This document shows positions 1-10,196 of a stretch of 64,000 bases of DNA, piece by piece. Position 1 is the first letter of the stretch. Each line of letters opens with the position of its first letter. A program made the translations under genes and the position numbers. The DNA comes from an uncultured Muribaculaceae bacterium. GTDB taxonomy: Bacteria; Bacillota_I; Bacilli_A; RF39; UBA660. The notes under the pieces are model-generated. The model was given only the letters and a program-made list of their open reading frames with translations. It had not been told where the DNA came from and ran no database searches. Location: the NCBI GenBank assembly GCA_964370755.1, contig CAYJKL010000004.1, positions 1,136-65,135 on the forward strand, written 5' to 3'.

Positions 1-84
1 TACAGTGAAAAAAAAGGCAGAAAGAACGCCTACTGATATTACTACAATTACAGTCACGTTTAAGTCTCCCGTTGCCTCTTTCAT
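1..84 (-). CDS. Pilin-like protein, paralog of 118..405; only the 5' end is in the window
   Basis: ATG at 84 with GGAG upstream. My translation of the reverse strand gives MKEATGDLNVTVIVVISVGVLSAFFFTV, nearly identical at the N-terminus to the 118..405 product. Confidence 0.5.
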   Translation of the reverse strand, partial: MKEATGDLNVTVIVVISVGVLSAFFFTV

Positions 85-117
85 ATTTATTCTCCTTCGA
101 AATTTTTTTTATGTTAC

Positions 118-405
118 TTATGGCGCGTCAGTTCCACCAGTACCACCAGTACCACCAGTACCTTCTGGACACGAAACATTTGTCTCATCAGTGTCAGTTG
201 CACCATTGCCATCTGCGTCATATGTACAAACTCTATCTGCACCTGTTCCCGTACAAGTACTTGCTATAGCACCATTACAGAACGTTGTTCTATTTAAACT
301 AGTTTGGATAGCTGGCCATACAAATGCGTAAAAAAATGCACCTACTGCTGCAATAGCTACTACTGTAACTACTGTCATATTTAATTCTCCTGTAGCTTCT
401 TTCAT
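118..405 (-). CDS. Candidate Flp/Tad-type major pilin (95 aa)
   Basis: Short charged leader MKEATG, then an acidic residue and about 22 hydrophobic residues. It lies immediately downstream of tadC-like and has RBS GGAGGA. The C-terminal part has 4 Cys and a GTGGTGGTGGT tail. Confidence 0.55.
   Translation of the reverse strand: MKEATGELNMTVVTVVAIAAVGAFFYAFVWPAIQTSLNRTTFCNGAIASTCTGTGADRVCTYDADGNGATDTDETNVSCPEGTGGTGGTGGTDAP
131..162. repeat. In-frame 9-bp tandem repeat (ccaccagta, about 3.5 copies) encoding the (GTG)n tail of the pilin
   Basis: Read directly: ccaccagta at 134-142, 143-151 and 152-160, with partial copies flanking. Confidence 0.9.
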
Positions 406-438
406 ATTCTAATATTCCTCCTTCTATTTTATATATTT

Positions 439-467
439 ATTATACCTAATATTTTATCAAATATCAA
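439..467 (-). promoter_or_regulatory. Sigma-A-type promoter dedicated to the pilin gene(s)
   Basis: Minus strand TTGATA (462-467), 17-nt spacer, TATAAT (439-444), in the 85-nt gap between the tadC-like stop and the pilin start. Confidence 0.45.
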
Positions 468-490
468 TGTTTTTTTTAATATTGTGTAAA

Positions 491-1279
491 CTAACCGTTC
501 ATCATTTGTAATACTGCTAATATTAGTAATATCATCACACCAAGTCCAGTCGCCATTAACATCTTCATTGTTTTTCCTTCCATCTTCTCAAGTCTGTTTT
601 TATACCTTGTATCTCTTGATTTTTGTTGTAAGCTTGATATTGACTTTGAAAATGTAAGCAGCTGTTCTTGTTTTCTTTCTTGTCTACCGAGTGATAGACG
701 GTAAAGTAAACGCATCATTCTCATAGAATCCCTTACTGGATACTTTTTAGCAAAGTTCATATATGGGTCAATTGAATCGTTTCCTGTATTAATTTCGATA
801 ATTAATTCCCTTAATCCTGGTCTAAATATTTCTGGCGCATCGTCTATTGATTTACCAAGAGCTACCGGTATTGTATAATGTTGTATTAATATCTCAATAC
901 TTTTTAAGTAATGAGGTAGCATTTGGTCAATATGAAACATGTTTCTTTTGTAAAAAGTTTTAAGCTGAGAATATGCTTGTTTAAAAATAAAGTAACCAGC
1001 TAGTAATGATATTACTATTGAAAGTGCTGAAAAATCATTTATAAAAAATAACATTGCGACTCCAGCCGCCATTAAACCATTTCTAATTCTTTGATTAAAT
1101 AATGTTGTAGAATTTACGTTATCGCCGTATCTTGCTCTTACATAAAATTCCCAATCTTCTTCTTTTAATCTTCTGAAAATTGCTTCGTTATCACTTACAA
1201 GTTGAGCAATACTTATTTGACCAGATACTGTCATTACAGTGAATATTATGGCTGCTATAATTACTATTTCAATTTGCAT
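491..1279 (-). CDS. tadC: TadC-like pilus assembly membrane protein (T2SSF-like)
   Basis: 262 aa with N- and C-terminal TM segments flanking a cytoplasmic helical domain. It is adjacent to and coupled with the tadB-like gene and the ATPase. Confidence 0.7.
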   Translation of the reverse strand: MQIEIVIIAAIIFTVMTVSGQISIAQLVSDNEAIFRRLKEEDWEFYVRARYGDNVNSTTLFNQRIRNGLMAAGVAMLFFINDFSALSIVISLLAGYFIFKQAYSQLKTFYKRNMFHIDQMLPHYLKSIEILIQHYTIPVALGKSIDDAPEIFRPGLRELIIEINTGNDSIDPYMNFAKKYPVRDSMRMMRLLYRLSLGRQERKQEQLLTFSKSISSLQQKSRDTRYKNRLEKMEGKTMKMLMATGLGVMILLILAVLQMMNG

Positions 1280-1281
1280 AA

Positions 1282-2187
1282 TTATTCGCCTCCTACATCT
1301 TCATTGTAGTATTTTTCCCCCGTTATTAAGAAATAACCGTTAACTAATAAAACAAAATGTAATATTATCTGAACATAAAAAGTCTCTATAAGTTCTAAGT
1401 AGTTATCTACACCAAACATATATTGAAGTGCAAGTACAAGTAAGAATAATATCATACCAAATCTAATAAATCTTCCGTGAAAATTCTTTCTATCTATTTG
1501 ATCTCGATAAACTCCCTCTACAAGTGCGTCTATATCCATTGACATATTTTCTAATGCTTGACCTGAATCCCTTGCTCCTTCTTTTGTAATTTGAAGAAAT
1601 AATTGATTCATGTTTTTCACCATATAAAACGGGTATTTTTCGTTGAAGTAAATTACTGATTCGTCAATTGTACCATTTTCATATGACATATCTATCATTC
1701 TTTTTACATCTGATAATACTGGATCTTCTAATATTCCTGAATCCCTAACTCCTTCGAGTGATTTTATGAAACTTTGAGTTGTATTAAACTCCATAATAAC
1801 GTTAGTAGTATAAATTTGTATTTGCTCAAATATAAATTCACTATATATTCTTTGACTTCTTAAATAAGATAGATAAGGAATAAAAGAAACAGCTAGCACA
1901 GCATAAACTATGCACAATATTAAACTATGAAAGTAAAAATATGATATTAATCCTGCACCACTTGCAAATATTATAACTTGCGTAGAATATTGTCTTGCCG
2001 AAAATTCTTGACCTAAAGCTTTAGTTTTTTCCCTTACTTCTTTATAAGAATATGGTGCGTATTTATCATACACTGTTGATACTCTATCTACTATAAAATT
2101 ATATATATTTTCACCAGGATTTAATCTGTAAAAAATCACAAATACAGTAATTACTAAGAGTATAACTAATTCTAAACTTGTTCCCAT
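1282..2187 (-). CDS. tadB: TadB-like pilus assembly membrane protein (T2SSF-like)
   Basis: 301 aa with the same TM-cytoplasmic domain-TM layout. It starts 12 nt after the ATPase stop. Confidence 0.7.
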   Translation of the reverse strand: MGTSLELVILLVITVFVIFYRLNPGENIYNFIVDRVSTVYDKYAPYSYKEVREKTKALGQEFSARQYSTQVIIFASGAGLISYFYFHSLILCIVYAVLAVSFIPYLSYLRSQRIYSEFIFEQIQIYTTNVIMEFNTTQSFIKSLEGVRDSGILEDPVLSDVKRMIDMSYENGTIDESVIYFNEKYPFYMVKNMNQLFLQITKEGARDSGQALENMSMDIDALVEGVYRDQIDRKNFHGRFIRFGMILFLLVLALQYMFGVDNYLELIETFYVQIILHFVLLVNGYFLITGEKYYNEDVGGE

Positions 2188-2198
2188 ATTATTCCTTT

Positions 2199-3317
2199 CT
2201 AAAGAGTTTCTAACTCTTCTAATTCATTTTGAATATTTTCTTTAGGTATTTTTGTATTAGTTGTTAAATTAAAAATATTATCTTTAAGTTTGACACCTTG
2301 TGCACCTAAATAGTCATGAAGTGCTTTTGATGGATTATTAAAATGATATTCTCCTCCGACACTTTTTTTGAATAATATATTTGCACATGCTTCATTTTCT
2401 TCTGATACATAAAATTCACATACTTCGATTATTTCACGCTGGAATCTTTCGTGCTCTGCACTATAATACCCTTTAACATGTATAGCAAGTTGTACATATC
2501 TGTGTATAGATTTTAAAAACTGATCAATATCTATATTATTTTCAAGCAAACTGTAAAGTCGCATTGGTACATTTCTAGCTCTATCTGAGTGGATTGTTGA
2601 TATGATATTGTGTCCCGATGATATTGAATTTCTTACGGCGGTAACCGCTTCTGCGGTTCTTACTTCTGAAAGTAAAATCCATCTTGGATTTTGTCTCATA
2701 CATGTAACTAGTACATCTGAATATGATGCAATATTATTTGTTTTCATCGCGACTATATCTCTATGCGGAAATATTTTATCAAGATGAAGTTCTAGTGTAT
2801 CTTCTATTGTAATTATTTTTTCGGTTTCACCAGTATGTGATGTTAAGTATTTAACAAGTTCTGTTTTACCTGAACCAGTTTCCCCACTTACTATTATGTT
2901 ACAGTGTCCTTTAACACATGTAATTAAAAAGTCATGAAGTTCTTCTGTAACATATTTTTCAGAAAGTAATTTGTCTTTATTTAATCTTATCTTTGCTGGA
3001 GTTTTACGTATAACACATGCTACTCCATTAGTTGCTATTGATTCATGCACAAAGTTAAGACGAAGCTCAGAACTTTCAGCATCTAAAAAGGGATGCGCCA
3101 TATTAAATGTCGTACCCATTACGTTTGAACACTGGAATGCAAGTTTTTCTAAAAGAGCGTTATTTATATCTGAACGCTCTATTCTATAAACTCCTTTATC
3201 TAGTGTCTTTAAATGTATTTGTCCATTATTTCCATATGAAACGTCTGTTACGTTTTCATCCTCTAAAAATTCTGTTAATGGTCCAAAATCTAATTGTGAA
3301 AATATTGCATCATTCAC
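2199..3317 (-). CDS. cpaF: CpaF/TadA-family type II/IV secretion ATPase
   Basis: Walker A GETGSGKT, followed by the ITIEDTLEL and RQNPRWILLSEVR blocks typical of T2SSE/VirB11-like ATPases. Confidence 0.9.
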   Translation of the reverse strand: MNDAIFSQLDFGPLTEFLEDENVTDVSYGNNGQIHLKTLDKGVYRIERSDINNALLEKLAFQCSNVMGTTFNMAHPFLDAESSELRLNFVHESIATNGVACVIRKTPAKIRLNKDKLLSEKYVTEELHDFLITCVKGHCNIIVSGETGSGKTELVKYLTSHTGETEKIITIEDTLELHLDKIFPHRDIVAMKTNNIASYSDVLVTCMRQNPRWILLSEVRTAEAVTAVRNSISSGHNIISTIHSDRARNVPMRLYSLLENNIDIDQFLKSIHRYVQLAIHVKGYYSAEHERFQREIIEVCEFYVSEENEACANILFKKSVGGEYHFNNPSKALHDYLGAQGVKLKDNIFNLTTNTKIPKENIQNELEELETL

Positions 3318-3339
3318 AAAATCACTCCCTTTTTATTTT

Positions 3340-4131
3340 TTAATCTGATACTGTATTTGTTTTGATTTCAATGTATGTTTTTATTGTTTGACTTGTTACC
3401 GTTGTTTCACCTTCAGAATCTGTATAGTTACTGTTACGTGGAACTGGTATTATTTCCAGTCCGCTTATAAAACTTGCTTGAGTCAGTAGGTTAAATAAAT
3501 TTTTATCATCATCTGAAGGATCGTCCGGTACTGCGAATAACAGTAGTGCTGATTGTCCTGTTTCAGTATTTTCAAATACATCTTCTTGTGATGAATCCCT
3601 AACTGCTAACACTTCTATTTTTTCGATAAACTTACCAAAATTTATTTCTCCTAAGTCATCTGTATATTTGATATATAAATCTATTCTATCTCCTGGATAA
3701 ATTGAGTTACCATAAGTTGAATTATTATTTACCGGTAAAGAAAATAGTGTATAACCTTCTGGTATATCATCAAATACTGCATTAGGTAATTTACTTTTTT
3801 CAACCACCTGAGTTTGATAAAAGAACCCTGACTTAGGTATTGATGTTCCTGTTGTTATGTATTTTCCTACTAATTCATTTACATTTGTCATGATTGGAAT
3901 TGTGGATAACATTCTTTGATTTATTTCTACGTAACCAATGTTATCTTGAATTATTTCCTCTGTTGCACTAATTGCTTCAAGTGCATAAGGAACTGTTGTT
4001 GGCGCAATAGCATCATTAACCCTCATATTATAAAAGAACCATAGTACTATTACTCCAGCAATTACTCCAAGGATTGTAACTGTATTTTTATTAGATATAA
4101 ATCTTTTAAATCCGCCTAGTATATTCCCCAT
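3340..4131 (-). CDS. CpaB/RcpC-like pilus assembly protein (N-terminal TM, SAF-like domain)
   Basis: N-terminal TM segment. The pattern EGYTLFSLPV...IYPGDRIDLYI resembles the CpaB family, and the gene sits directly upstream of the ATPase. Confidence 0.6.
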   Translation of the reverse strand: MGNILGGFKRFISNKNTVTILGVIAGVIVLWFFYNMRVNDAIAPTTVPYALEAISATEEIIQDNIGYVEINQRMLSTIPIMTNVNELVGKYITTGTSIPKSGFFYQTQVVEKSKLPNAVFDDIPEGYTLFSLPVNNNSTYGNSIYPGDRIDLYIKYTDDLGEINFGKFIEKIEVLAVRDSSQEDVFENTETGQSALLLFAVPDDPSDDDKNLFNLLTQASFISGLEIIPVPRNSNYTDSEGETTVTSQTIKTYIEIKTNTVSD

Positions 4132-4149
4132 ATTATTTCATTCCTTTCA

Positions 4150-4560
4150 TTATTCTATTGCTTCTCCTTCAAGTATTGCATCTACAGTATCGACAATATC
4201 AAATGTTTCAGTATCACCTGCTACATTAAATGAACTAGATTTACTTGAGACTTTAACACTGATTTTTGGCGGAGCTTCATATATTTGATAAAATTCAATA
4301 TCATATGTTGTTCCTCCATCGCTAGATTCTGCCATTCTTCTTAAAAAAGTTTCAATAAATTTTTCTTTATTTATTCTTAATTCTCCATATTCTCTATAAT
4401 AAGCATAATCTACAGAATCTACCATTGCAGCTTCCGAAATTTCCCTTACCATTGTATTAGTAATAGTATTACTGTTAGTTAGATTTTGAACTAACAGCAT
4501 TACTACCACAACAAATACTCCTAAAATTATTAACCAATATCCCCAATAAGCATTACTCAT
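4150..4560 (-). CDS. Membrane-anchored hypothetical protein (136 aa) in the Tad operon
   Basis: One N-terminal TM helix and an acidic C-terminus. It starts 13 nt after the 1149-aa gene stop. No family recognised. Confidence 0.5.
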   Translation of the reverse strand: MSNAYWGYWLIILGVFVVVVMLLVQNLTNSNTITNTMVREISEAAMVDSVDYAYYREYGELRINKEKFIETFLRRMAESSDGGTTYDIEFYQIYEAPPKISVKVSSKSSSFNVAGDTETFDIVDTVDAILEGEAIE

Positions 4561-4572
4561 TTATAAAACCTC

Positions 4573-7500
4573 CTATTTCCATGCTGGTCCACCTATAGTA
4601 GACTCTGTTATCTGATTGGGAATTCCCGTTACAAAAAGTTCCCAATAACTACTCGGATCATCTCTATTTATTTGATTGTCATCAGCATCTTTTCCATACT
4701 GGAATTTATCTTTGTGCTCGTCGCTTGTAATCCATTCGCCTAGCGGTTCACTATAGCATAGTAGGTTTTTATAAGTAATTCCATCTACTTTTGCGTTTTG
4801 ACAGTCAAGAGAATTATTTGAGTAACCACCACCTTGATCTTCAACTGTATCAGAACTATTGTAGTTCTTTATTGTATTTACGAGCGCTGGGTCGAGTGTT
4901 ACTGTTAAAAACGGCGTTTCAGCATATATTGCATTGCCTTCAGCTAGTATTCCAGTACTATTTTCATCAATTATCAGATTTCCTGAATTATCAACTCCTG
5001 TAATACCTAGTGTTTTTTGTGCTTTAAGCGAAACAAATCCGTACTTGGTATCTGTTGTATAATTGTAATTCCAGTTATACCCAAGTGGTCTATTATTTGG
5101 ATTAAATGCATCTGGTGAGTATGTTCTATAAACTAAGTTGACTGTTACATCGAATTTACAAGTTGGACAGTAAGGATCTGGTGTATCAAAGTTTCCTTCG
5201 ATATTAATATCACATTCTGGACAATTTATTGGAGCATAACATACATATTCTCCTGTAAATGTGTCTTCTTTTTCCATTACATCATCTACTGATTGATCCG
5301 ATTTATCGTCACCTTTATCCACTAATCTTCCAGTTTCATCACATTCTTCGCTGTAATATTCTCCTAGATTATCAATATTAATTTTATATGTGTATGCACC
5401 ATTTACTGTAGGTCTCATTTCTGTAGGCAAACCGTCTACTACTATCGATTCATCTGTTGCTTCATAAACTATATTTCCATTAGGTACTAGTTGATAATAA
5501 TTTCTTTCGGTTTGATATTTTTCATTATCTGACATAGTCCATTTAATATAATTAGATGTACCTATTGTTATATATTCTTCTGGAAGAGAACATCCTGAAG
5601 TACTACAACTTAGGTATTTGACTTGTTTTGATTGAGCAGTGTAATTTGTAACTAAATTTCCACTACATGTATTATATTCATTACTTCCCAAAGCTCCATC
5701 ACAGTACCATTTTTCTACTGTTGTGGGAGTATTTGTTGTTGATACCATTTCATCTTCAACTTTACTTAAATCATAATATTCTGAATCATATGTATAAGTT
5801 AGTGTTGGATTAAGTTCATAATTAACTGTCCACGTTGAACAAGCTCTGTAATCGCTTATTAATGCGTTAAGTTGATTTTGAAGACTTGTTATTTTTATTG
5901 CTGCGGCTGATGCTGTTGTTTCATAATCGGCTGCCACACTAGTTTGTGTAGTATTTGAACTACAACCCCCTGCAGAAGCTGGATATACTTCACTACTTGA
6001 AGTTGATATTGTAGCCTCCCCATATTCACCAAATGTTATTGAATAGTGTGTATATGTTCCTGAAGAACTATACTTTGTCTTTGATGAAGGTATAGGAAAT
6101 AAACTGCATATCTCCACAGTACCTGCATCATTTTTTAATGAAGTTGCTGTATTGATATTTTTATTATATATATTCATTTGATTAATTAATTCTGTTTGAA
6201 TTGTTTTAATATCACTAACATATTGATCTATTTTAATTTCGCTTGTGTAACATGTTTTTACTCCATATACACTTGCATCTATATTAAAATACCTAGCATT
6301 ATTTACATTTTTTACTGCAGGGAATTTTAAACTATAATCTTCTTTACAGTATACTGCGCAGTAATTATTATTTACTACGGAACCGCCTGATTCAGTTTTT
6401 ATTATACCTGTTTCGCAAGTGTTTTTATATGAATTGCCACCATCATCTAATTTATCAGACCAGGTAGTATCACTTACATTGTCACCTGTTACTGTTGTGG
6501 TTGGAGTCCCTGTAATACATCCTACTATATCAAATGGGTCTTTTACATCAAAATCACCAGTAGAATTTTGATCTATCCATTCATTATCTTCATCTATATC
6601 TGATGGATTTATACAGTAGTTTGGTACTGTTATTTCATTCTTACACATATCTGGACATATTTCAACTTGAGTTGATAAACTTCCATCTATTAAATCTGTA
6701 CCTGTATCTGATCCTTCGTCTAGAAATACTGCAAATGTCTGAACTGCTCCAGTACCAGATAAATACAGAACTTCTGAAGGACTTACATTACCGTTATAAG
6801 AATAATTTATTGTAAAATGAGCGGGTGGACATTCACCATCTGGTATGTTATATACTAATTTGAAATTAATTTCTTTTATAGTATCAAGCGATATGTGTTT
6901 AAGTGCTTCTTCTGCTGCCGCAGTGCTAGTGTATGTTACTTTTGATTCGTCTTTTTTTACAATATCTATATTCATTGTTACTATATTATGTACTTGTGTT
7001 GTGATATAAAGTTTTTGTATATAATTATCACTTTCAAAGTTTGTTGGATTTAAACTTGCTTGAACAACAGATTGTTTTAGTGTTTCATCCACTACATTTG
7101 GTCCTAGTTCATTAACAAATGATGGTGCAGCCGTTACTGAACTACCGTCTTTTTCTTGTTCAATTAAACGAGCTTCTTCTAAAGCAGCATTGATGCCTTT
7201 ACTTATTAATAATTGAATAATAAATGTAAAATAGTTATTTTGATATAAATCATATTTATATCCACCACTTTCCCAAATAGGTGACCCAGATTCATTTAAT
7301 AAAGCACTATGAAAGGTTTTACCAGGGTTATACCAACTTCTTGTTGAGTTAAAATCTTCTTTCATAATATTTACTAAATTTGATAAATCATCAATTGGTT
7401 TATCTGTCATGAATTGTGTTAAATATTTAACATCTTCTTTTTGTTCTGCTGTTGTACTAGGATCATTTGCTATAAACGCCAAATATCCTAGTGCGAAGTC

Positions 7501-8022
7501 TACGTGGGCAGAAGCTGTTGTGCTCCATGTTGAATAACTAGAATCATTAAATATACCAATATAATAGGCTCTTATAGCAACTGATGTAACAAGATATAAT
7601 TCATCATCAGTTAAGGAATAGTTTTTGCCATAAAATTCGAAGTTTTGACTTTCCCCTTGCTTGCTGCCTCCTAAACCGTATTTTAAGATTTCCGCTACTC
7701 CAGCATCCCTAATTCTAGTTTCTTCAAAAGTAACTCCAAAATCATGCTGTTTTAAGTTGTAACCTGACGCGGCTGCTCCAGGATCCAAACAATATGCTGG
7801 TTGATCCAACCATGTACCTATGCTTATTTGATATCTATTTGTTCCATATCCTGACCCAATAGACGTTGCGCTACCGGTGTCTCCAATATTTATTAGTTGA
7901 GTTGTCTTATTACCATAACTTTTCCAAACAGGAGTTTCGTTTATTTCAATGGCATTAACATCATGACTTATAAGTAAAATTGTTAACAATAAAAATAAAT
8001 TATATATTTTAATTTTTTTCAT
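4573..8022 (-). CDS. Large secreted Cys-rich protein (1149 aa), function unknown; candidate pilus-associated adhesin
   Basis: Signal peptide ending HDVNA/IE. Many Cys, including CPECD...CPTCK. No LPXTG motif and no C-terminal TM. The start overlaps the upstream gene by 14 nt. Confidence 0.75.
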   Translation of the reverse strand: MKKIKIYNLFLLLTILLISHDVNAIEINETPVWKSYGNKTTQLINIGDTGSATSIGSGYGTNRYQISIGTWLDQPAYCLDPGAAASGYNLKQHDFGVTFEETRIRDAGVAEILKYGLGGSKQGESQNFEFYGKNYSLTDDELYLVTSVAIRAYYIGIFNDSSYSTWSTTASAHVDFALGYLAFIANDPSTTAEQKEDVKYLTQFMTDKPIDDLSNLVNIMKEDFNSTRSWYNPGKTFHSALLNESGSPIWESGGYKYDLYQNNYFTFIIQLLISKGINAALEEARLIEQEKDGSSVTAAPSFVNELGPNVVDETLKQSVVQASLNPTNFESDNYIQKLYITTQVHNIVTMNIDIVKKDESKVTYTSTAAAEEALKHISLDTIKEINFKLVYNIPDGECPPAHFTINYSYNGNVSPSEVLYLSGTGAVQTFAVFLDEGSDTGTDLIDGSLSTQVEICPDMCKNEITVPNYCINPSDIDEDNEWIDQNSTGDFDVKDPFDIVGCITGTPTTTVTGDNVSDTTWSDKLDDGGNSYKNTCETGIIKTESGGSVVNNNYCAVYCKEDYSLKFPAVKNVNNARYFNIDASVYGVKTCYTSEIKIDQYVSDIKTIQTELINQMNIYNKNINTATSLKNDAGTVEICSLFPIPSSKTKYSSSGTYTHYSITFGEYGEATISTSSSEVYPASAGGCSSNTTQTSVAADYETTASAAAIKITSLQNQLNALISDYRACSTWTVNYELNPTLTYTYDSEYYDLSKVEDEMVSTTNTPTTVEKWYCDGALGSNEYNTCSGNLVTNYTAQSKQVKYLSCSTSGCSLPEEYITIGTSNYIKWTMSDNEKYQTERNYYQLVPNGNIVYEATDESIVVDGLPTEMRPTVNGAYTYKINIDNLGEYYSEECDETGRLVDKGDDKSDQSVDDVMEKEDTFTGEYVCYAPINCPECDINIEGNFDTPDPYCPTCKFDVTVNLVYRTYSPDAFNPNNRPLGYNWNYNYTTDTKYGFVSLKAQKTLGITGVDNSGNLIIDENSTGILAEGNAIYAETPFLTVTLDPALVNTIKNYNSSDTVEDQGGGYSNNSLDCQNAKVDGITYKNLLCYSEPLGEWITSDEHKDKFQYGKDADDNQINRDDPSSYWELFVTGIPNQITESTIGGPAWK

Positions 8023-8743
8023 TTGATTTCTCTCCTATTTTTTTTCTGAATATAATTAAAGAACCTAATAATAATACTACAACAATTATTATTACAATTA
8101 GTAATACGTTATTACTATCATGACTTTCTTCGGTTTCTTCAGCGTCATCTTCTGTCTCAAATTTTTCTTCTTTTAGATCATCTAATTTTTGATAAAAAGA
8201 ATCAGCGGATAAGTTTTCGTTAGTAGTAAATTCTTGACATATTGGTTCATCTTTAAAATCCAAACATTCATCTCTACCACTATACATGTTATATTTTGGC
8301 GTTGTTAAATAAAAAATTTTATTATTCTCGTTAGGGCAGCCTGTTATATCTGAAGTTTTAACTGTAAAAGTATATGTTATTACTTCATTATCATTGTAAC
8401 CTTCCATTGCATATGTTCCTTCAACAAAATCTGTATATAATATAGTTTTTACCTCTGTATTATAATCATTAGTTACTTCTATAGTAAAATTATCTGTCAT
8501 ATTTAATACATTAATACTAATATATGGAACAAATAATTTATAGTCTTCAGCTTCCTCTTCTGTTAAATCTTCTGGTGGTTCGTACATACTAGGATCCAAT
8601 TCTAATTGTAGTATTTCATAATCCACCTTTATTAAATTTGCCTCTGTTTTTAACTCCGATTGCTCCTCTACTGAGCATGCAGAATTTGCATTTACTATTA
8701 GTGGCATTGTTAATAGTAAAAAAGTATATAGTATTTTTTTCAT
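8009..8743 (-). CDS. Secreted acidic protein with a C-terminal TM anchor (244 aa); first gene of the Tad-like operon
   Basis: Signal peptide (LIVNA/NS), an acidic ectodomain, a C-terminal hydrophobic helix and a basic tail (FRKKIGEK). Confidence 0.65.
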   Translation of the reverse strand: MKKILYTFLLLTMPLIVNANSACSVEEQSELKTEANLIKVDYEILQLELDPSMYEPPEDLTEEEAEDYKLFVPYISINVLNMTDNFTIEVTNDYNTEVKTILYTDFVEGTYAMEGYNDNEVITYTFTVKTSDITGCPNENNKIFYLTTPKYNMYSGRDECLDFKDEPICQEFTTNENLSADSFYQKLDDLKEEKFETEDDAEETEESHDSNNVLLIVIIIVVVLLLGSLIIFRKKIGEKSNEKN

Positions 8744-8864
8744 TTAGTTATATCCTACCTTTCTAAATAATTTTAACATAATATATTATTAATTTCAACA
8801 CTCTAATTGTATATTTAGGAAATTTATGGTATTATATTTTTATACTACGAGAGGAAGTTTTCTT

Positions 8865-9677
8865 ATGAAAAAAATTATCATTGTTGTTTTACTTTTATTT
8901 ATTTTATTATTTTTATATACGAGATATGTAGAACTATATCAAATAAATGTAAATGAATATACTATTGAAAATTCTAATATACCGGTTTCTTTTGATGGAA
9001 TTAAAATTGTTCAATTTTCTGATACTTTAATTAGTGAAGTTTATACTTTAGAGCACTTTGAGAAAATAGTTAACGAAATTAACTCTTTAGATGCTGATAT
9101 TGTTATTTTTTCTGGAGATTTAATTGATGATAATTATAAACTAAGTGATAGTGATAAAACTAAATTAATTAAGTTATTATCTAGTATTAAAAGTACCCAA
9201 TTTAATTTTGCTATAGTTGGCGATAATGATCAAAAGATCATTACAGATTATAGTGATATAATGAAGCATAGTGAATTTATTTTGCTAGATAATAAATCTT
9301 ATCCTTTATTTTACAAAGATAACTCACCTATTGTTTTAACTGGTTTAACAGATACTAGTAATTTAACTGAAAGTTATAAAATAGACGATACTATAGATAG
9401 TACTTACAGCATTACTCTAATGCATAAACCTGATGATGCTAGTAAAATTATTGATTATACTGATTTAGTACTTGGGGCACACTCTTTAGGCGGATATATT
9501 AATTTACCTTTTATCGGTCCTGTACTTGAAAAAGATGGAGCCACTAAGTATATTAATGGTTATTATAATTTAAATGATACCCCGATATACGTTAGTAATG
9601 GACTTGGTACTGAGAATACTCACCTTAGATTTAATAACTCTCCTTCAATTAATTTATATAGATTAAAAGTTAGCTAG
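8865..9677 (+). CDS. Membrane-anchored metallophosphoesterase (YkuE-like)
   Basis: Motifs FSGDLID, VGDND and GAHSLGG. I moved the start to MKKIII, which has a GAGAGGAAG RBS. Confidence 0.8.
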   Translation: MKKIIIVVLLLFILLFLYTRYVELYQINVNEYTIENSNIPVSFDGIKIVQFSDTLISEVYTLEHFEKIVNEINSLDADIVIFSGDLIDDNYKLSDSDKTKLIKLLSSIKSTQFNFAIVGDNDQKIITDYSDIMKHSEFILLDNKSYPLFYKDNSPIVLTGLTDTSNLTESYKIDDTIDSTYSITLMHKPDDASKIIDYTDLVLGAHSLGGYINLPFIGPVLEKDGATKYINGYYNLNDTPIYVSNGLGTENTHLRFNNSPSINLYRLKVS

Positions 9678-9726
9678 TATAACTTTTTTTTATTGGTTAA
9701 TAATATTTATGAAAGGATTGATATAT

Positions 9727-9936
9727 ATGGGTAAAGTACCTAAAATGATTTCTACTAAAGATTTATCTTATATAAGTGATATGTTTAACTGGAATATGAT
9801 ACTAGTTAATAAACTTAATTTATTTTTAGAAGAAGTTACTGATGAAGAAATGAAAACATTATTTAGTAATGCTCTTGATATGCATACTAAGCACGCTAAT
9901 AATTTAATTGGAATTTTAAAAGGAGGTAATGAGTAA
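9727..9936 (+). CDS. Small helical protein, possible CotF-like partner
   Basis: Start MGKVPK follows AAAGGA. The stop overlaps the next start as TAATG. Confidence 0.45.
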   Translation: MGKVPKMISTKDLSYISDMFNWNMILVNKLNLFLEEVTDEEMKTLFSNALDMHTKHANNLIGILKGGNE

Positions 9937-10196
9937 TGGATGAAAAATATTATCTATTTGATTTACTAGCTAGCGAAAAGAATATGGGAGTTAATATGGC
10001 TACTGCTATAAATGAGGCAAGCTGTGATTATTTATATAAAAAATATATGACAATGTATAAAGAAGTTAGTGAAATGCAAAAAGATTTATTTAACTATGCT
10101 TATTCTTCAAACTTTTATACACTTGAAGAAGCAGATTCTAAGAAATGTCAAACTGAGGTTGATAAAATGGAAAGTGAAATGAATAACTCAATATAA
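9936..10196 (+). CDS. Coat F domain (CotF-like) spore coat protein
   Basis: DLLASEKNM...AINEASC...pattern typical of the Coat_F domain. RBS AGGAGG lies 9 nt upstream. Confidence 0.6.
   Translation: MDEKYYLFDLLASEKNMGVNMATAINEASCDYLYKKYMTMYKEVSEMQKDLFNYAYSSNFYTLEEADSKKCQTEVDKMESEMNNSI

Follow-up and report, generated by a model that had tools for sequence, protein, structure and literature searches.

A secreted, Cys-rich protein of a pilus-type operon in small-genome gut bacteria is probably an unanchored adhesin

The locus studied here raises the question of what a large, secreted, Cys-rich protein that bears no wall or membrane anchor does beside a set of pilus-type genes, and how it might be held on the cell. 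The locus lies in a 64,000-nt stretch of DNA (the window) and includes two minus-strand genes, one encoding a 244-aa partner protein (P244, 8009..8743, an ORF at the position given by an earlier note on this DNA) and one encoding a 1149-aa secreted Cys-rich member of an unannotated protein family (BIG, 4573..8022). Our preferred reading, to which we assign a probability of about 0.55, is that both genes belong to a Tad-like operon and that BIG joins a thioester-type adhesin head to a core that retains it without a sortase anchor. P244 and BIG would then open, as a translationally coupled pair, a lineage-specific Tad-like (type IV filament) operon carried by uncultured gut Bacilli with genomes of ~1 Mb, and BIG, exported by Sec, would comprise two parts, the head and the core.

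The coordinates confirm the minus-strand placement and the 14-nt ORF overlap (8009-8022) described in the earlier note. Its proposal of translational coupling is also upheld: in most of 79 related loci the P244 stop shares 4 nt (ATGA) with the BIG start, and because the overlap recurs so widely, the coupling is not a matter of chance. By sequence reading, a candidate σ70-type promoter (TTGAAA-17-TAAAAT, 8770..8798, minus strand) sits upstream of the P244 gene, in the divergent intergenic region ahead of the operon's first gene.

BIG begins with MKKIKIYNLFLLLTILLISHDVNA/IE, a Sec signal peptide with an AXA-type site (residues 1-24, ...VNA/IE, 7951..8022, minus strand) whose A24 hardly varies across the family, and it ends in ...GGPAWK. 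Sequence inspection found neither a TM helix at the C-terminus nor LPXTG, and no wall-binding Pfam domain was present in BIG or 64 relatives. The C-terminal end carries a conserved motif of its own, GP(A/S)WK-COOH (4576..4590, minus strand; G1145 and P1146 invariant, W1148 and K1149 nearly so). With 25 Cys (2.18%), BIG stands well above the mean of 0.96% for the genome's ORFs of at least 150 aa and above its signal-peptide-like ORFs (mean 0.69%, 90th percentile 1.67%). The earlier note had thus rightly described an exported, unanchored and unusually Cys-rich protein, and the motifs that it had singled out are all found (CPECD...CPTCK at 934-955, AYCLDPG at 76-82 and LVTSVAIRAYY at 144-154). 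Its account of P244 as a protein with a signal peptide, an acidic segment and a C-terminal TM anchor fits equally well: the signal peptide is followed by an ectodomain of ~170 aa with four invariant Cys (C23, C136, C160 and C169), an acidic linker, the TM helix and an RKK tail. The BIG family numbers at least 815 representative clusters at E ≤ 1e-3, none of them annotated; BIG itself had no sequence match in Pfam, NCBIfam or PDB, and P244 had no relative in the same three databases.

We next asked how firmly the pair is tied to pilus-type genes. The gene order P244 - BIG - DUF5411 - CpaB - TadA/VirB11-like ATPase - TadB - TadC - pilins was kept in 16/16 loci of the same family and in ~75/79 loci from GTDB species genomes, with P244 directly upstream of BIG in ~75/79, and the link to a Tad-like locus drawn in the earlier note is thereby substantiated. 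Next to BIG, all on the minus strand, lie genes for a 136-aa DUF5411 protein with an N-terminal TM helix (4150..4560; Pfam PF17424, E 4e-51), a 263-aa CpaB/RcpC-like protein (3340..4131; assigned by its conserved position and by sub-cut-off matches to RcpC, 1.2e-5, and TIGR03177, 2.2e-6) and a 372-aa secretion ATPase of the TadA/CpaF/VirB11 family (2199..3317; Pfam T2SSE 4.8e-29, and NCBIfam), the closest plasmid relatives of which are found on Gram-positive conjugative plasmids. Two polytopic membrane proteins of 301 and 262 aa (491..2187) gave no Pfam match and are placed as TadB and TadC by position and conservation. The first of two short pilin-like genes, with an MKEATGELN leader, follows at 118..405; the second and two TadE-like genes lie on the same contig before the window begins, and the gene for a prepilin peptidase is found at another place in the genome. 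The operon is almost confined to one family: its most conserved accessory gene, DUF5411 (mean column identity 64%), was present in 89/101 genera of that family and in only 2 of ~265 genomes from the class's other families.

Such strict synteny with machinery genes, at the first position of an operon whose locus is near-universal in the family, would also suit a BIG that serves the Tad-like machine structurally, as a wall-spanning sheath, conduit or tip scaffold, and not as an adhesin. It would stand in for parts missing in monoderms, the Cys and Gln of its head would be structural or metal-binding, and the head would vary from exposure to phage or immune pressure. We consider this improbable. 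The P244-BIG pair is sometimes encoded away from the tad genes, and in four loci it is duplicated as a unit, P244 together with BIG, with both members diverging in step (37-60% and 36-74% identity); a machine part of fixed stoichiometry would not usually behave this way.

The two parts of BIG differ sharply in conservation, which bears on the same alternative from both sides. Pairwise identity among family members was 31-42% for the core (residues 453-1149, 4576..6666, minus strand), with many invariant Cys, compared with a mean of 19-22% for the head (residues ~44-440, 6703..7893, minus strand), and short family members of 399-428 aa seemingly consist of core segments alone; both observations favor a structural role. 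Head swapping and hypervariability, on the other hand, are typical of receptor-binding modules: in genera without a BIG profile match, the slot is still occupied by a P244-like gene and a large ORF that retains core segments only, with a different head. It also speaks for an adhesin that the head's sole invariant residues are a Cys/Gln pair in motifs like those of thioester domains (TEDs), and that TIEpLS20, the relative that has been tested, is an adhesin.

The core is structurally new and has no known domain. It combines a beta domain of CKEDY type with two long helices, a beta-rich region and an alpha/beta domain at the C-terminus, and it yielded no consistent Pfam match across 64 members and nothing significant in Foldseek. 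Within it, a CPxC...CPxC loop (residues 934-955, 5158..5223, minus strand) has the motif and conservation of a zinc-ribbon-like element or disulfide knot. Its C934, C937, C952 and C955 show complete or near-complete conservation, its modeled pLDDT is below 50, and its sole Pfam match is weak (Zn_ribbon_DUF2089, E 0.0055-0.018, below cut-off). In the adhesin reading, the core would most likely hold BIG on the cell via P244, DUF5411 or the pilus, replacing a sortase anchor.

The hypervariable head, assigned as thioester-domain-like from AF2 secondary structure, TED matches and covariation, would be a fast-evolving, swappable module descended from Gram-positive thioester domains. AF2 models of moderate confidence only (pLDDT 76) gave it a beta/helical/beta topology (pTM 0.72), placing Cys78 at a strand end, an ATxxAxR motif within a helix and Gln428 at a strand start. 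Cys78 (codon 7789..7791, minus strand), in AYCLDP, is the candidate thioester Cys; it was invariant in 128/128, 73/73 and 63/63 sequences and is the only Cys within the first 397 residues of BIG. The candidate thioester Gln, Gln428 (AVQTFAV, codon 6739..6741, minus strand; family consensus Q-R-[FY]-Φ-Φ), was invariant in 63/63 and 73/73 aligned relatives (alignments A3 and A4) and present in 124/128 representatives (A2). Across 63 heads sharing 11-24% identity no other column was invariant, and a Cys and a Gln as sole fully conserved residues is the pattern reported for TEDs (PMC4450167). Between them, the helix motif LYLVTSVAIRAY (7564..7599, minus strand; family consensus YxATxxAxRx[YF], with A149 and R151 nearly invariant) aligns by hhalign with YxATQxLIW of class I TEDs and is the counterpart of their TQxxΦW helix.

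Profile searches support a distant relationship of the head's Cys half to TEDs, as the earlier note had supposed from the [YF]C..[DN] and T.xA motifs. Pfam TED (PF08341) was matched weakly by 10/63 members, any other Pfam family by at most 3 of 63, and genome searches with PF08341 also reached BIG-sized ORFs; the core showed no comparable signal among 64 members. With signal peptides removed, hhalign matched the head to same-clade class I TEDs (66 columns, E 2.2e-4, running from YC through GY to YxAT) and to a pLS20-family TIE homologue (E 1.6e-6, probability 90%, 42 columns, 40% identity). An initial hhalign result of 95% had been produced by signal peptides, and with a first, cruder alignment the match collapsed to 12 columns of motif. 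For the Gln half, neither class I nor class II TEDs gave a significant profile match. In mean-field DCA, 4 pairs between the 74-82 and 425-435 strands fell in the top 100 of 46,931 (0.21 expected), among the covarying pairs being 80-429, 76-432 and 79-431. Pair 80-429 ranked 5th, and 23rd-25th in 70% subsamples, and further contacts to the ATxxAxR helix placed Cys strand, Gln strand and helix together. The analysis drew on only ~170 effective sequences, and since scores at near-invariant columns (78, 149, 151 and 428) are unreliable, only pairs of variable neighboring columns count.

Could the TED-like features be chance motif matches in an unrelated helical-plus-Ig-like module? BIG itself reached no TED model in Pfam or NCBIfam, and the individual statistics are all weak (Pfam E 2.3e-5 at best, reached by a single member; hhalign probability 45-90%, 42-66 columns). 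Foldseek against PDB, the check that the earlier note had proposed, recovered no TED fold: neither model had a match at E ≤ 1e-3, the top 50 contained no thioester-domain entry, and the best high-probability matches were generic Ig-like adhesin domains (AgI/II C123, probability 0.92-0.97). This negative also fits a structural part. Chance is nevertheless a very remote explanation, given recurrent Pfam matches for head and not core, two profile-profile matches in the same register, agreement of invariance, secondary-structure context and covariation on the same residues, and a TED adhesin that also adjoins a homologous ATPase module on plasmids.

A head of TED ancestry that no longer forms a thioester, any adhesion then being non-covalent, is a more serious alternative but still a doubtful one. 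Cys78 would form a disulfide, for example with Cys398, or act as a catalytic or metal-binding residue. C398 is indeed conserved in 110/128 members (86%); it is missing from 14%, however, whereas C78 is invariant, Q428 is conserved as strongly as C78, and the head holds no conserved His or Asp able to complete a protease or transglutaminase triad. The TQxxΦW helix is altered to T[SNT]xAxR, on which the earlier note had argued that the Gln position is Ser and a canonical thioester therefore unlikely. That argument considered the wrong Gln: in real TEDs the Gln that forms the bond lies in a later beta-strand motif (ΦQζΦΦ) and not in the TQxA(I/V)W helix, whose own Gln and Trp the bond does not require (PMC4450167). 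Loss is further favored by the Foldseek result, by the lack of a profile match for the Gln region and by the Cys-Gln spacing, at 350 residues twice the usual (~150-190 in known TEDs), so that a large helical insertion must be assumed; covariation nonetheless sets the Cys and Gln strands side by side. We retain the thioester reading, in which an internal thioester most likely links Cys78 to Gln428 and would react with a nucleophile on the target surface, giving covalent adhesion. Of the earlier note's adhesin or pilus proposal, the tie of an adhesin-like protein to a pilus locus stands, while its Gln argument is not supported and Foldseek recovered no TED fold.

Among known systems, the head appears closest to the class II type represented by TIEpLS20 (p34) of the Bacillus subtilis conjugative plasmid pLS20, a TED adhesin with a YCID motif, Cys68 and Gln256 that has no LPXTG and is sortase-independent (PMC8092201). 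The head profile matches a plasmid homologue of this protein, the hhalign partner above, which is that of pBamB1895. Both proteins have a Sec signal peptide, an N-terminal head and a Cys motif of the [YF]CIDP type with YDxG..IL..G[YF] after it, and both are without LPXTG or a C-terminal TM helix (PMC8092201 for TIEpLS20). In both loci the gene for this protein lies just upstream of a CpaF/VirB11-type ATPase gene (two genes upstream on a pLS20-family plasmid), behind which come polytopic membrane proteins and small pilin-like genes. The ATPases are ~30% identical, the DUF5411 profile weakly matches a 128-aa plasmid protein (E 1.6e-3) and the 301-aa TadB-like protein a 267-aa one (E 0.004). P244, CpaB and the TadC-like protein had no detected counterpart on the pLS20-family plasmid, and tblastn of BIG and DUF5411 against 72,556 plasmids returned nothing. 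TIEpLS20 is also smaller (778 aa), with a CnaB/MucBP-type stalk, a single Cys and a Cys-Gln spacing of 188 residues, whereas the 1149-aa BIG has a Cys-rich core ending GPSWK. The plasmid locus is a conjugation operon with VirD4; the BIG locus is chromosomal, belongs to the core gene set of an entire bacterial family, and includes CpaB as well as clear pilin genes.

Class I TEDs (SfbI, Cpa, CpTIE; PF08341), found in sortase-anchored TIE and pilus-tip adhesins, share with BIG the YC[ILV][DE]P motif, GY turn and YxAT helix in matching order and spacing, the beta/helical/beta topology, and a head placed distally, at the N-terminus of a large surface protein. BIG differs in its helix motif, in ~160 aa of extra helical insertion and in lacking a sortase signal. 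Canonical TED proteins bearing (V/I)PNTG sorting signals are encoded separately in the same genomes, and BIG is therefore a distinct paralogous lineage.

With Tad/Flp (type IVc) pili, including monoderm versions, the BIG locus shares a TadA/CpaF-type ATPase, a CpaB-like protein, two platform-like membrane proteins, short pilins and TadE-like minor pilins, as well as the prepilin peptidase encoded outside the locus. Unlike them, it has neither TadZ nor a secretin, its pilin leader (MKEATG/ELN) fits neither the Flp nor the type IVa consensus, and Tad systems offer no counterpart of its DUF5411 and P244. With PilY1, a non-pilin tip adhesin of type IVa pili, BIG shares a general logic: a large non-pilin exported by Sec, its N-terminal module variable and its C-terminal part conserved, whose gene adjoins those of the pilus. 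The two proteins show no similarity in sequence or fold.

We find that BIG, a 1149-aa secreted protein, is most likely an unanchored adhesin in which a diverged, class II-like thioester domain (TED) head (residues 25–452) is joined to a new Cys-rich core (residues 453–1149). Its gene (4573–8022, minus strand) overlaps by 14 nt the gene of its 244-aa partner, P244 (8009–8743, minus strand), as the earlier note had reported, and is preceded by the Shine-Dalgarno sequence AGGAGA 8 nt before the start; the P244 gene has AGGTAGGA ahead of its own start and a promoter-like TTGAAA-17-TAAAAT upstream. BIG begins with a Sec signal peptide (cleavage …HDVNA/IE), ends in …GGPAWK and, in agreement with that note, contains neither an LPXTG motif nor a TM helix. 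The Cys-richness it had described is also borne out, with 25 Cys (2.18%) against a mean of 0.69% in signal-peptide-like ORFs of the same genome, and Cys78 is the sole Cys in the first 397 residues. P244 shows the expected signal peptide, acidic linker and C-terminal TM helix followed by RKK, along with four Cys that are invariant among its relatives; matches to EssA and LPXTG_anchor were rejected as sub-threshold and spanning only the TM helix and basic tail. Every motif quoted earlier was found in the sequence, and the observation on the gene pair is confirmed.

The P244-BIG pair stands at the head of a Tad-like operon that is specific to this lineage. The source genome (1.2 Mb, 93% complete, ~26% GC) carries the window on contig C4, where BIG is followed on the same strand by genes for a DUF5411 protein (Pfam E = 4e-51), a CpaB/RcpC-like protein, a TadA/CpaF/VirB11-family ATPase, two polytopic membrane proteins and a short pilin-like protein, beyond which lie a second pilin and two TadE-like genes ahead of the contig end. 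As markers of Tad/Flp type IVc systems we took a TadA/CpaF ATPase, TadB/TadC, CpaB/RcpC, a Flp-type pilin with G/xxxxEY, a TadV peptidase and TadZ. The ATPase was recognized by a T2SSE match (4.8e-29), CpaB/RcpC by a weak match below the cut-off, and TadB and TadC from position only; TadZ was not found within the operon locus. Under an operational definition made in this analysis, a DUF5411-type operon comprises genes for a P244-like protein, a large secreted protein, DUF5411, CpaB and the ATPase on one strand, all of which are present from window position 8743 down to 2199. The TANB77 pilus cluster (PMC11680825) was ruled out as the same system because its gene set differs (TadZ/CpaE, fused TadB/C). 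The two short pilin-like genes lie in tandem (window 118–405 and C4:977–1219, the latter before the window start) and share the leader MKEATG(E/D)LN, which departs from both the Flp (G/xxxxEY) and the type IVa consensus; the tail of the first is rich in GTGGTGGTGG. A prepilin peptidase (PF01478) is encoded away from the operon, on contig C5. GC content in the operon region (window 1–10000) is 30–33%, compared with 23–28% across most of the window.

The order P244 - BIG - DUF5411 - CpaB - ATPase - TadB - TadC - pilins hardly varies among 16 loci of other genera in the GTDB family or among 79 loci recovered from GTDB species genomes. Record titles of related loci name uncultured Bacilli, Tenericutes or Mycoplasma MAGs and Clostridium sp. 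CAG:609, with human, rabbit, mouse, goat and chicken guts as sources. In most of these loci the P244 stop overlaps the BIG start by 4 nt, and where second copies occur P244 and BIG have been duplicated and have diverged jointly. The co-occurrence of the pair with tad loci, on which the earlier note had made its reading depend, is supported by these loci. A few P244-BIG pairs have no adjoining tad genes in the stretch fetched; the same is true of one BIG gene that stands without P244. Among 101 genera of the family, 89 have DUF5411, and among ~265 genomes sampled from other families in the class only 2 do, which makes the locus a hallmark of the lineage: a near-universal, lineage-specific surface organelle of widespread, uncultured, genome-reduced gut Bacilli. 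In some genera DUF5411 is duplicated or fused to a C-terminal extension of 100–400 aa (proteins of 234–533 aa), and in one subclade CpaB is duplicated (L041, L046, L047, L055, L056, L059, L069, L077, L078 and L012/L013/L016 for these variants).

We recovered 8 relatives of BIG by word-indexed search and 815 representative clusters by exhaustive profile search, 426 of them at E ≤ 1e-30. Searches with family members returned no Pfam, NCBIfam or PDB sequence match, and a PDB profile search with the BIG, P244 and DUF5411 alignments gave nothing meaningful. Pairwise identity among members was 19–22% in the head and 31–42% in the core. Most of the invariant Cys are in the core, which also has a CPxC…CPxC loop and ends in an invariant GP(S/A)WK. 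In 20 genomes that were negative with the first BIG profile, the slot before DUF5411 usually held a large ORF behind a P244-sized gene, and the P244 profile matched 13 of these smaller genes. Many of the slot ORFs, searched with filters off, had only core segments in common with BIG and carried other heads, and we therefore regard BIG as a conserved core with an exchangeable head; one such ORF retains an …ALCLDH… motif. An exchangeable adhesin head that would bind covalently points to attachment to host or partner cells, and the head could mark strain-level target specificity. At loci L129–L147, from genera in which the BIG profile gives no match, quite different large Cys-rich proteins (399–1288 aa) are encoded between the P244-like gene and DUF5411, several with a repeated N-terminal pattern like '...I(T/E)GWA(L/F)VH...' in place of the YC head; this looks like cassette-style head replacement.

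We compared the head with TEDs using the Pfam models PF08341 (class I) and PF20610 (class II). BIG itself (query P0001) had no match to a curated TED model in Pfam or NCBIfam at E ≤ 0.1. Among its relatives, PF08341 matched 10 of 63 at E ≤ 1 (best 2.3e-5); Pfam TED was the only family recurrently matched by BIG heads, and the cores gave no signal of this kind. BIG-sized ORFs matching PF08341 in whole-genome searches all fell under the 22-bit cut-off (best 19.9 bits). Ordinary TED adhesins with a (V/I)PNTG sorting signal also occur in the same genomes, and from these we built a class I TED profile. An initial hhalign comparison of the head with class I TEDs (95% probability) was discarded because signal peptides made up most of the aligned block. 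After trimming and re-alignment, head and class I TEDs aligned over 66 columns, from YC through GY to YxAT(Q), with E = 2.2e-4, and a homologue of the TIE adhesin of the pLS20 family aligned with the head over 42 columns (40% identity, E = 1.6e-6, probability 90%). The Gln half of the head had no significant profile match to class I TEDs or to the plasmid TIE. On contig C11 of the same genome (L128:1327–2823) we also observed a canonical class I TED adhesin of 498 aa with YCIEPG, ATQYLIW, a conserved SQ and a C-terminal IPNTS...TM...KRKK sorting signal; its relatives have (V/I)PNTG variants, so that in this clade a PNTG-type sortase motif is in use next to the BIG family, which lacks an anchor.

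Only the Cys and a Gln in a later β-strand motif (Φ-Q-ζ-Φ-Φ) are fully conserved in TEDs; this Gln, and not that of the TQxxΦW helix, forms the bond, and the helix residues are dispensable (PMC4450167). In BIG the Cys lies in AYCLDP (family consensus [YF]C[LRIM][DN][PA]), and Cys78 is invariant in 128 of 128 sequences and ends strand 71–78 in both AlphaFold2 models. In 63 heads with 11–24% identity, the only invariant columns were Cys78 and Gln428. The latter (V-Q-T-F-A; consensus Q-R-[FY]-Φ-Φ) is invariant in alignments A3 and A4 (73 and 63 sequences), is found in 124 of 128 sequences of alignment A2 and stands at the start of strand 429–434, 350 aa from the Cys, with no significant profile alignment to the TED Gln. 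The helix motif YxATxxAxR has nearly invariant A149 and R151. The earlier note considered a thioester unlikely in canonical form because the Gln of TQxA is Ser in BIG; this objection fails because it was made for the wrong Gln, and Gln428 is a candidate for the later-strand Gln. Cys78 might instead belong to a cysteine protease or transglutaminase, a reading that we dropped because the head has no conserved His or Asp.

We next considered the TED reading at the level of structure, where a TED would be expected to show a β-sandwich or barrel, a helical subdomain inserted into it, and a Cys and a Gln whose side chains lie close enough to bond. AlphaFold2 gave a pLDDT of 76 for both models (pTM 0.58 for full length, 0.72 for the head) and a head of strands (44–78), helices (100–292, with ATxxAxR helical) and strands (295–453), the β/helical/β order of TEDs. 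The main weakness of the TED reading is the negative Foldseek result: neither model had a PDB match at E ≤ 1e-3, and the 50 best rows included no TED. Full-length rows (a diphtheria-toxin homologue, S-layer) were dismissed as noise (E ≥ 6e-3, TM < 0.1). Head-only rows were Kir channels, matches that stem from a helical bundle set into an Ig-like sandwich, and AgI/II Ig-like domains, with Ig-like adhesin domains (~155 columns) the better supported. Covariation spoke for the TED arrangement. Mean-field DCA on 186 heads (Neff 170) placed 4 pairs between strands 74–82 and 425–435 in the top 100 of 46,931, against 0.21 expected, in a count that leaves out near-invariant columns, where scores are unreliable. 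Pair 80–429 ranked 5 (23–25 in 70% subsamples), pairs 76–432 and 79–431 are consistent with an antiparallel ladder, and both strands couple to the motif helix, H2 (80–154, 77–146, 154–431). Taken together, these pairs place the Cys strand, Gln strand and motif helix in mutual contact, as described for TEDs, whose thioester is buried between helical and β subdomains with the motif helix bonded to the Cys backbone (PMC4450167). We consider a Cys78–Gln428 thioester in BIG plausible and predict it at about even odds.

With at least 815 clusters, the family at this locus is a large natural one in which a TED-like head is fused to a new Cys-rich core, and its architecture departs from that of known thioester adhesins. 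To our knowledge, these are otherwise known only as sortase-anchored wall proteins or sortase-pilus tips, with TIEpLS20 as the one unanchored case. While sortase-anchored TIE proteins end in an LPXTG-type signal, BIG has no LPXTG, PNTG or C-terminal TM helix; and while CnaB/isopeptide or ester domains make up the stalk of TIE proteins, 64 BIG-family cores gave no match to a domain of the Cna, isopeptide or ester type, the only stalk-like hint being a generic Ig-like resemblance of residues ~295–450 to AgI/II C123 domains (Foldseek). From translational coupling, co-duplication and the conservation gradient, we infer that BIG is retained through P244, DUF5411 or the pilus. Because gene context ties this core firmly to a Tad-like motor, to a tail-anchored partner and to DUF5411, retention becomes a testable question.

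A broader possibility, to which we assign a probability of roughly 0.3, is that a type IV filament (Tad-like) machine, and not sortase, displays the BIG family, which would then be the first covalent (thioester) adhesin of this kind. Tail-anchored P244 or the DUF5411 protein would pass Sec-exported BIG to the filament, the hand-over running via the conserved Cys-rich core and its GPSWK end, and the same module of an ATPase-driven filament plus an unanchored TED adhesin would also work in pLS20-type conjugative plasmids. If true, this would explain how TIEpLS20, an experimentally supported class II TED adhesin (YCID, Cys68, modelled Gln256) that lacks LPXTG and needs no sortase (PMC8092201), stays on the donor cell. 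A tblastn search of BIG and DUF5411 against 72,556 plasmids gave no match. The best plasmid relatives of the operon ATPase (~30% identity) belong to Gram-positive conjugative plasmids. In pBamB1895, whose annotation includes a pLS20_p028-family conjugation gene, the genes run 252 aa, 767 aa, 169 aa, 128 aa, CpaF/VirB11, 267 aa, 243 aa and small genes. P244, the CpaB-like and the TadC-like proteins had no detectable counterpart among the neighbours of its TED adhesin. Matches of the 767-aa protein to TED_2 and TED are weak; the DUF5411 profile and the 128-aa protein align along 100 columns (E = 1.6e-3), and the TadB-like protein aligned with the 267-aa protein (E = 0.004). pBamB1895 (L149, 2722–3903) also encodes, two genes upstream of its TED adhesin, a 393-aa hypothetical protein with a near-threshold match to Pfam Endotoxin_C2 (Cry1Aa domain IV-like; 29.5 bits, cut-off 30.7).
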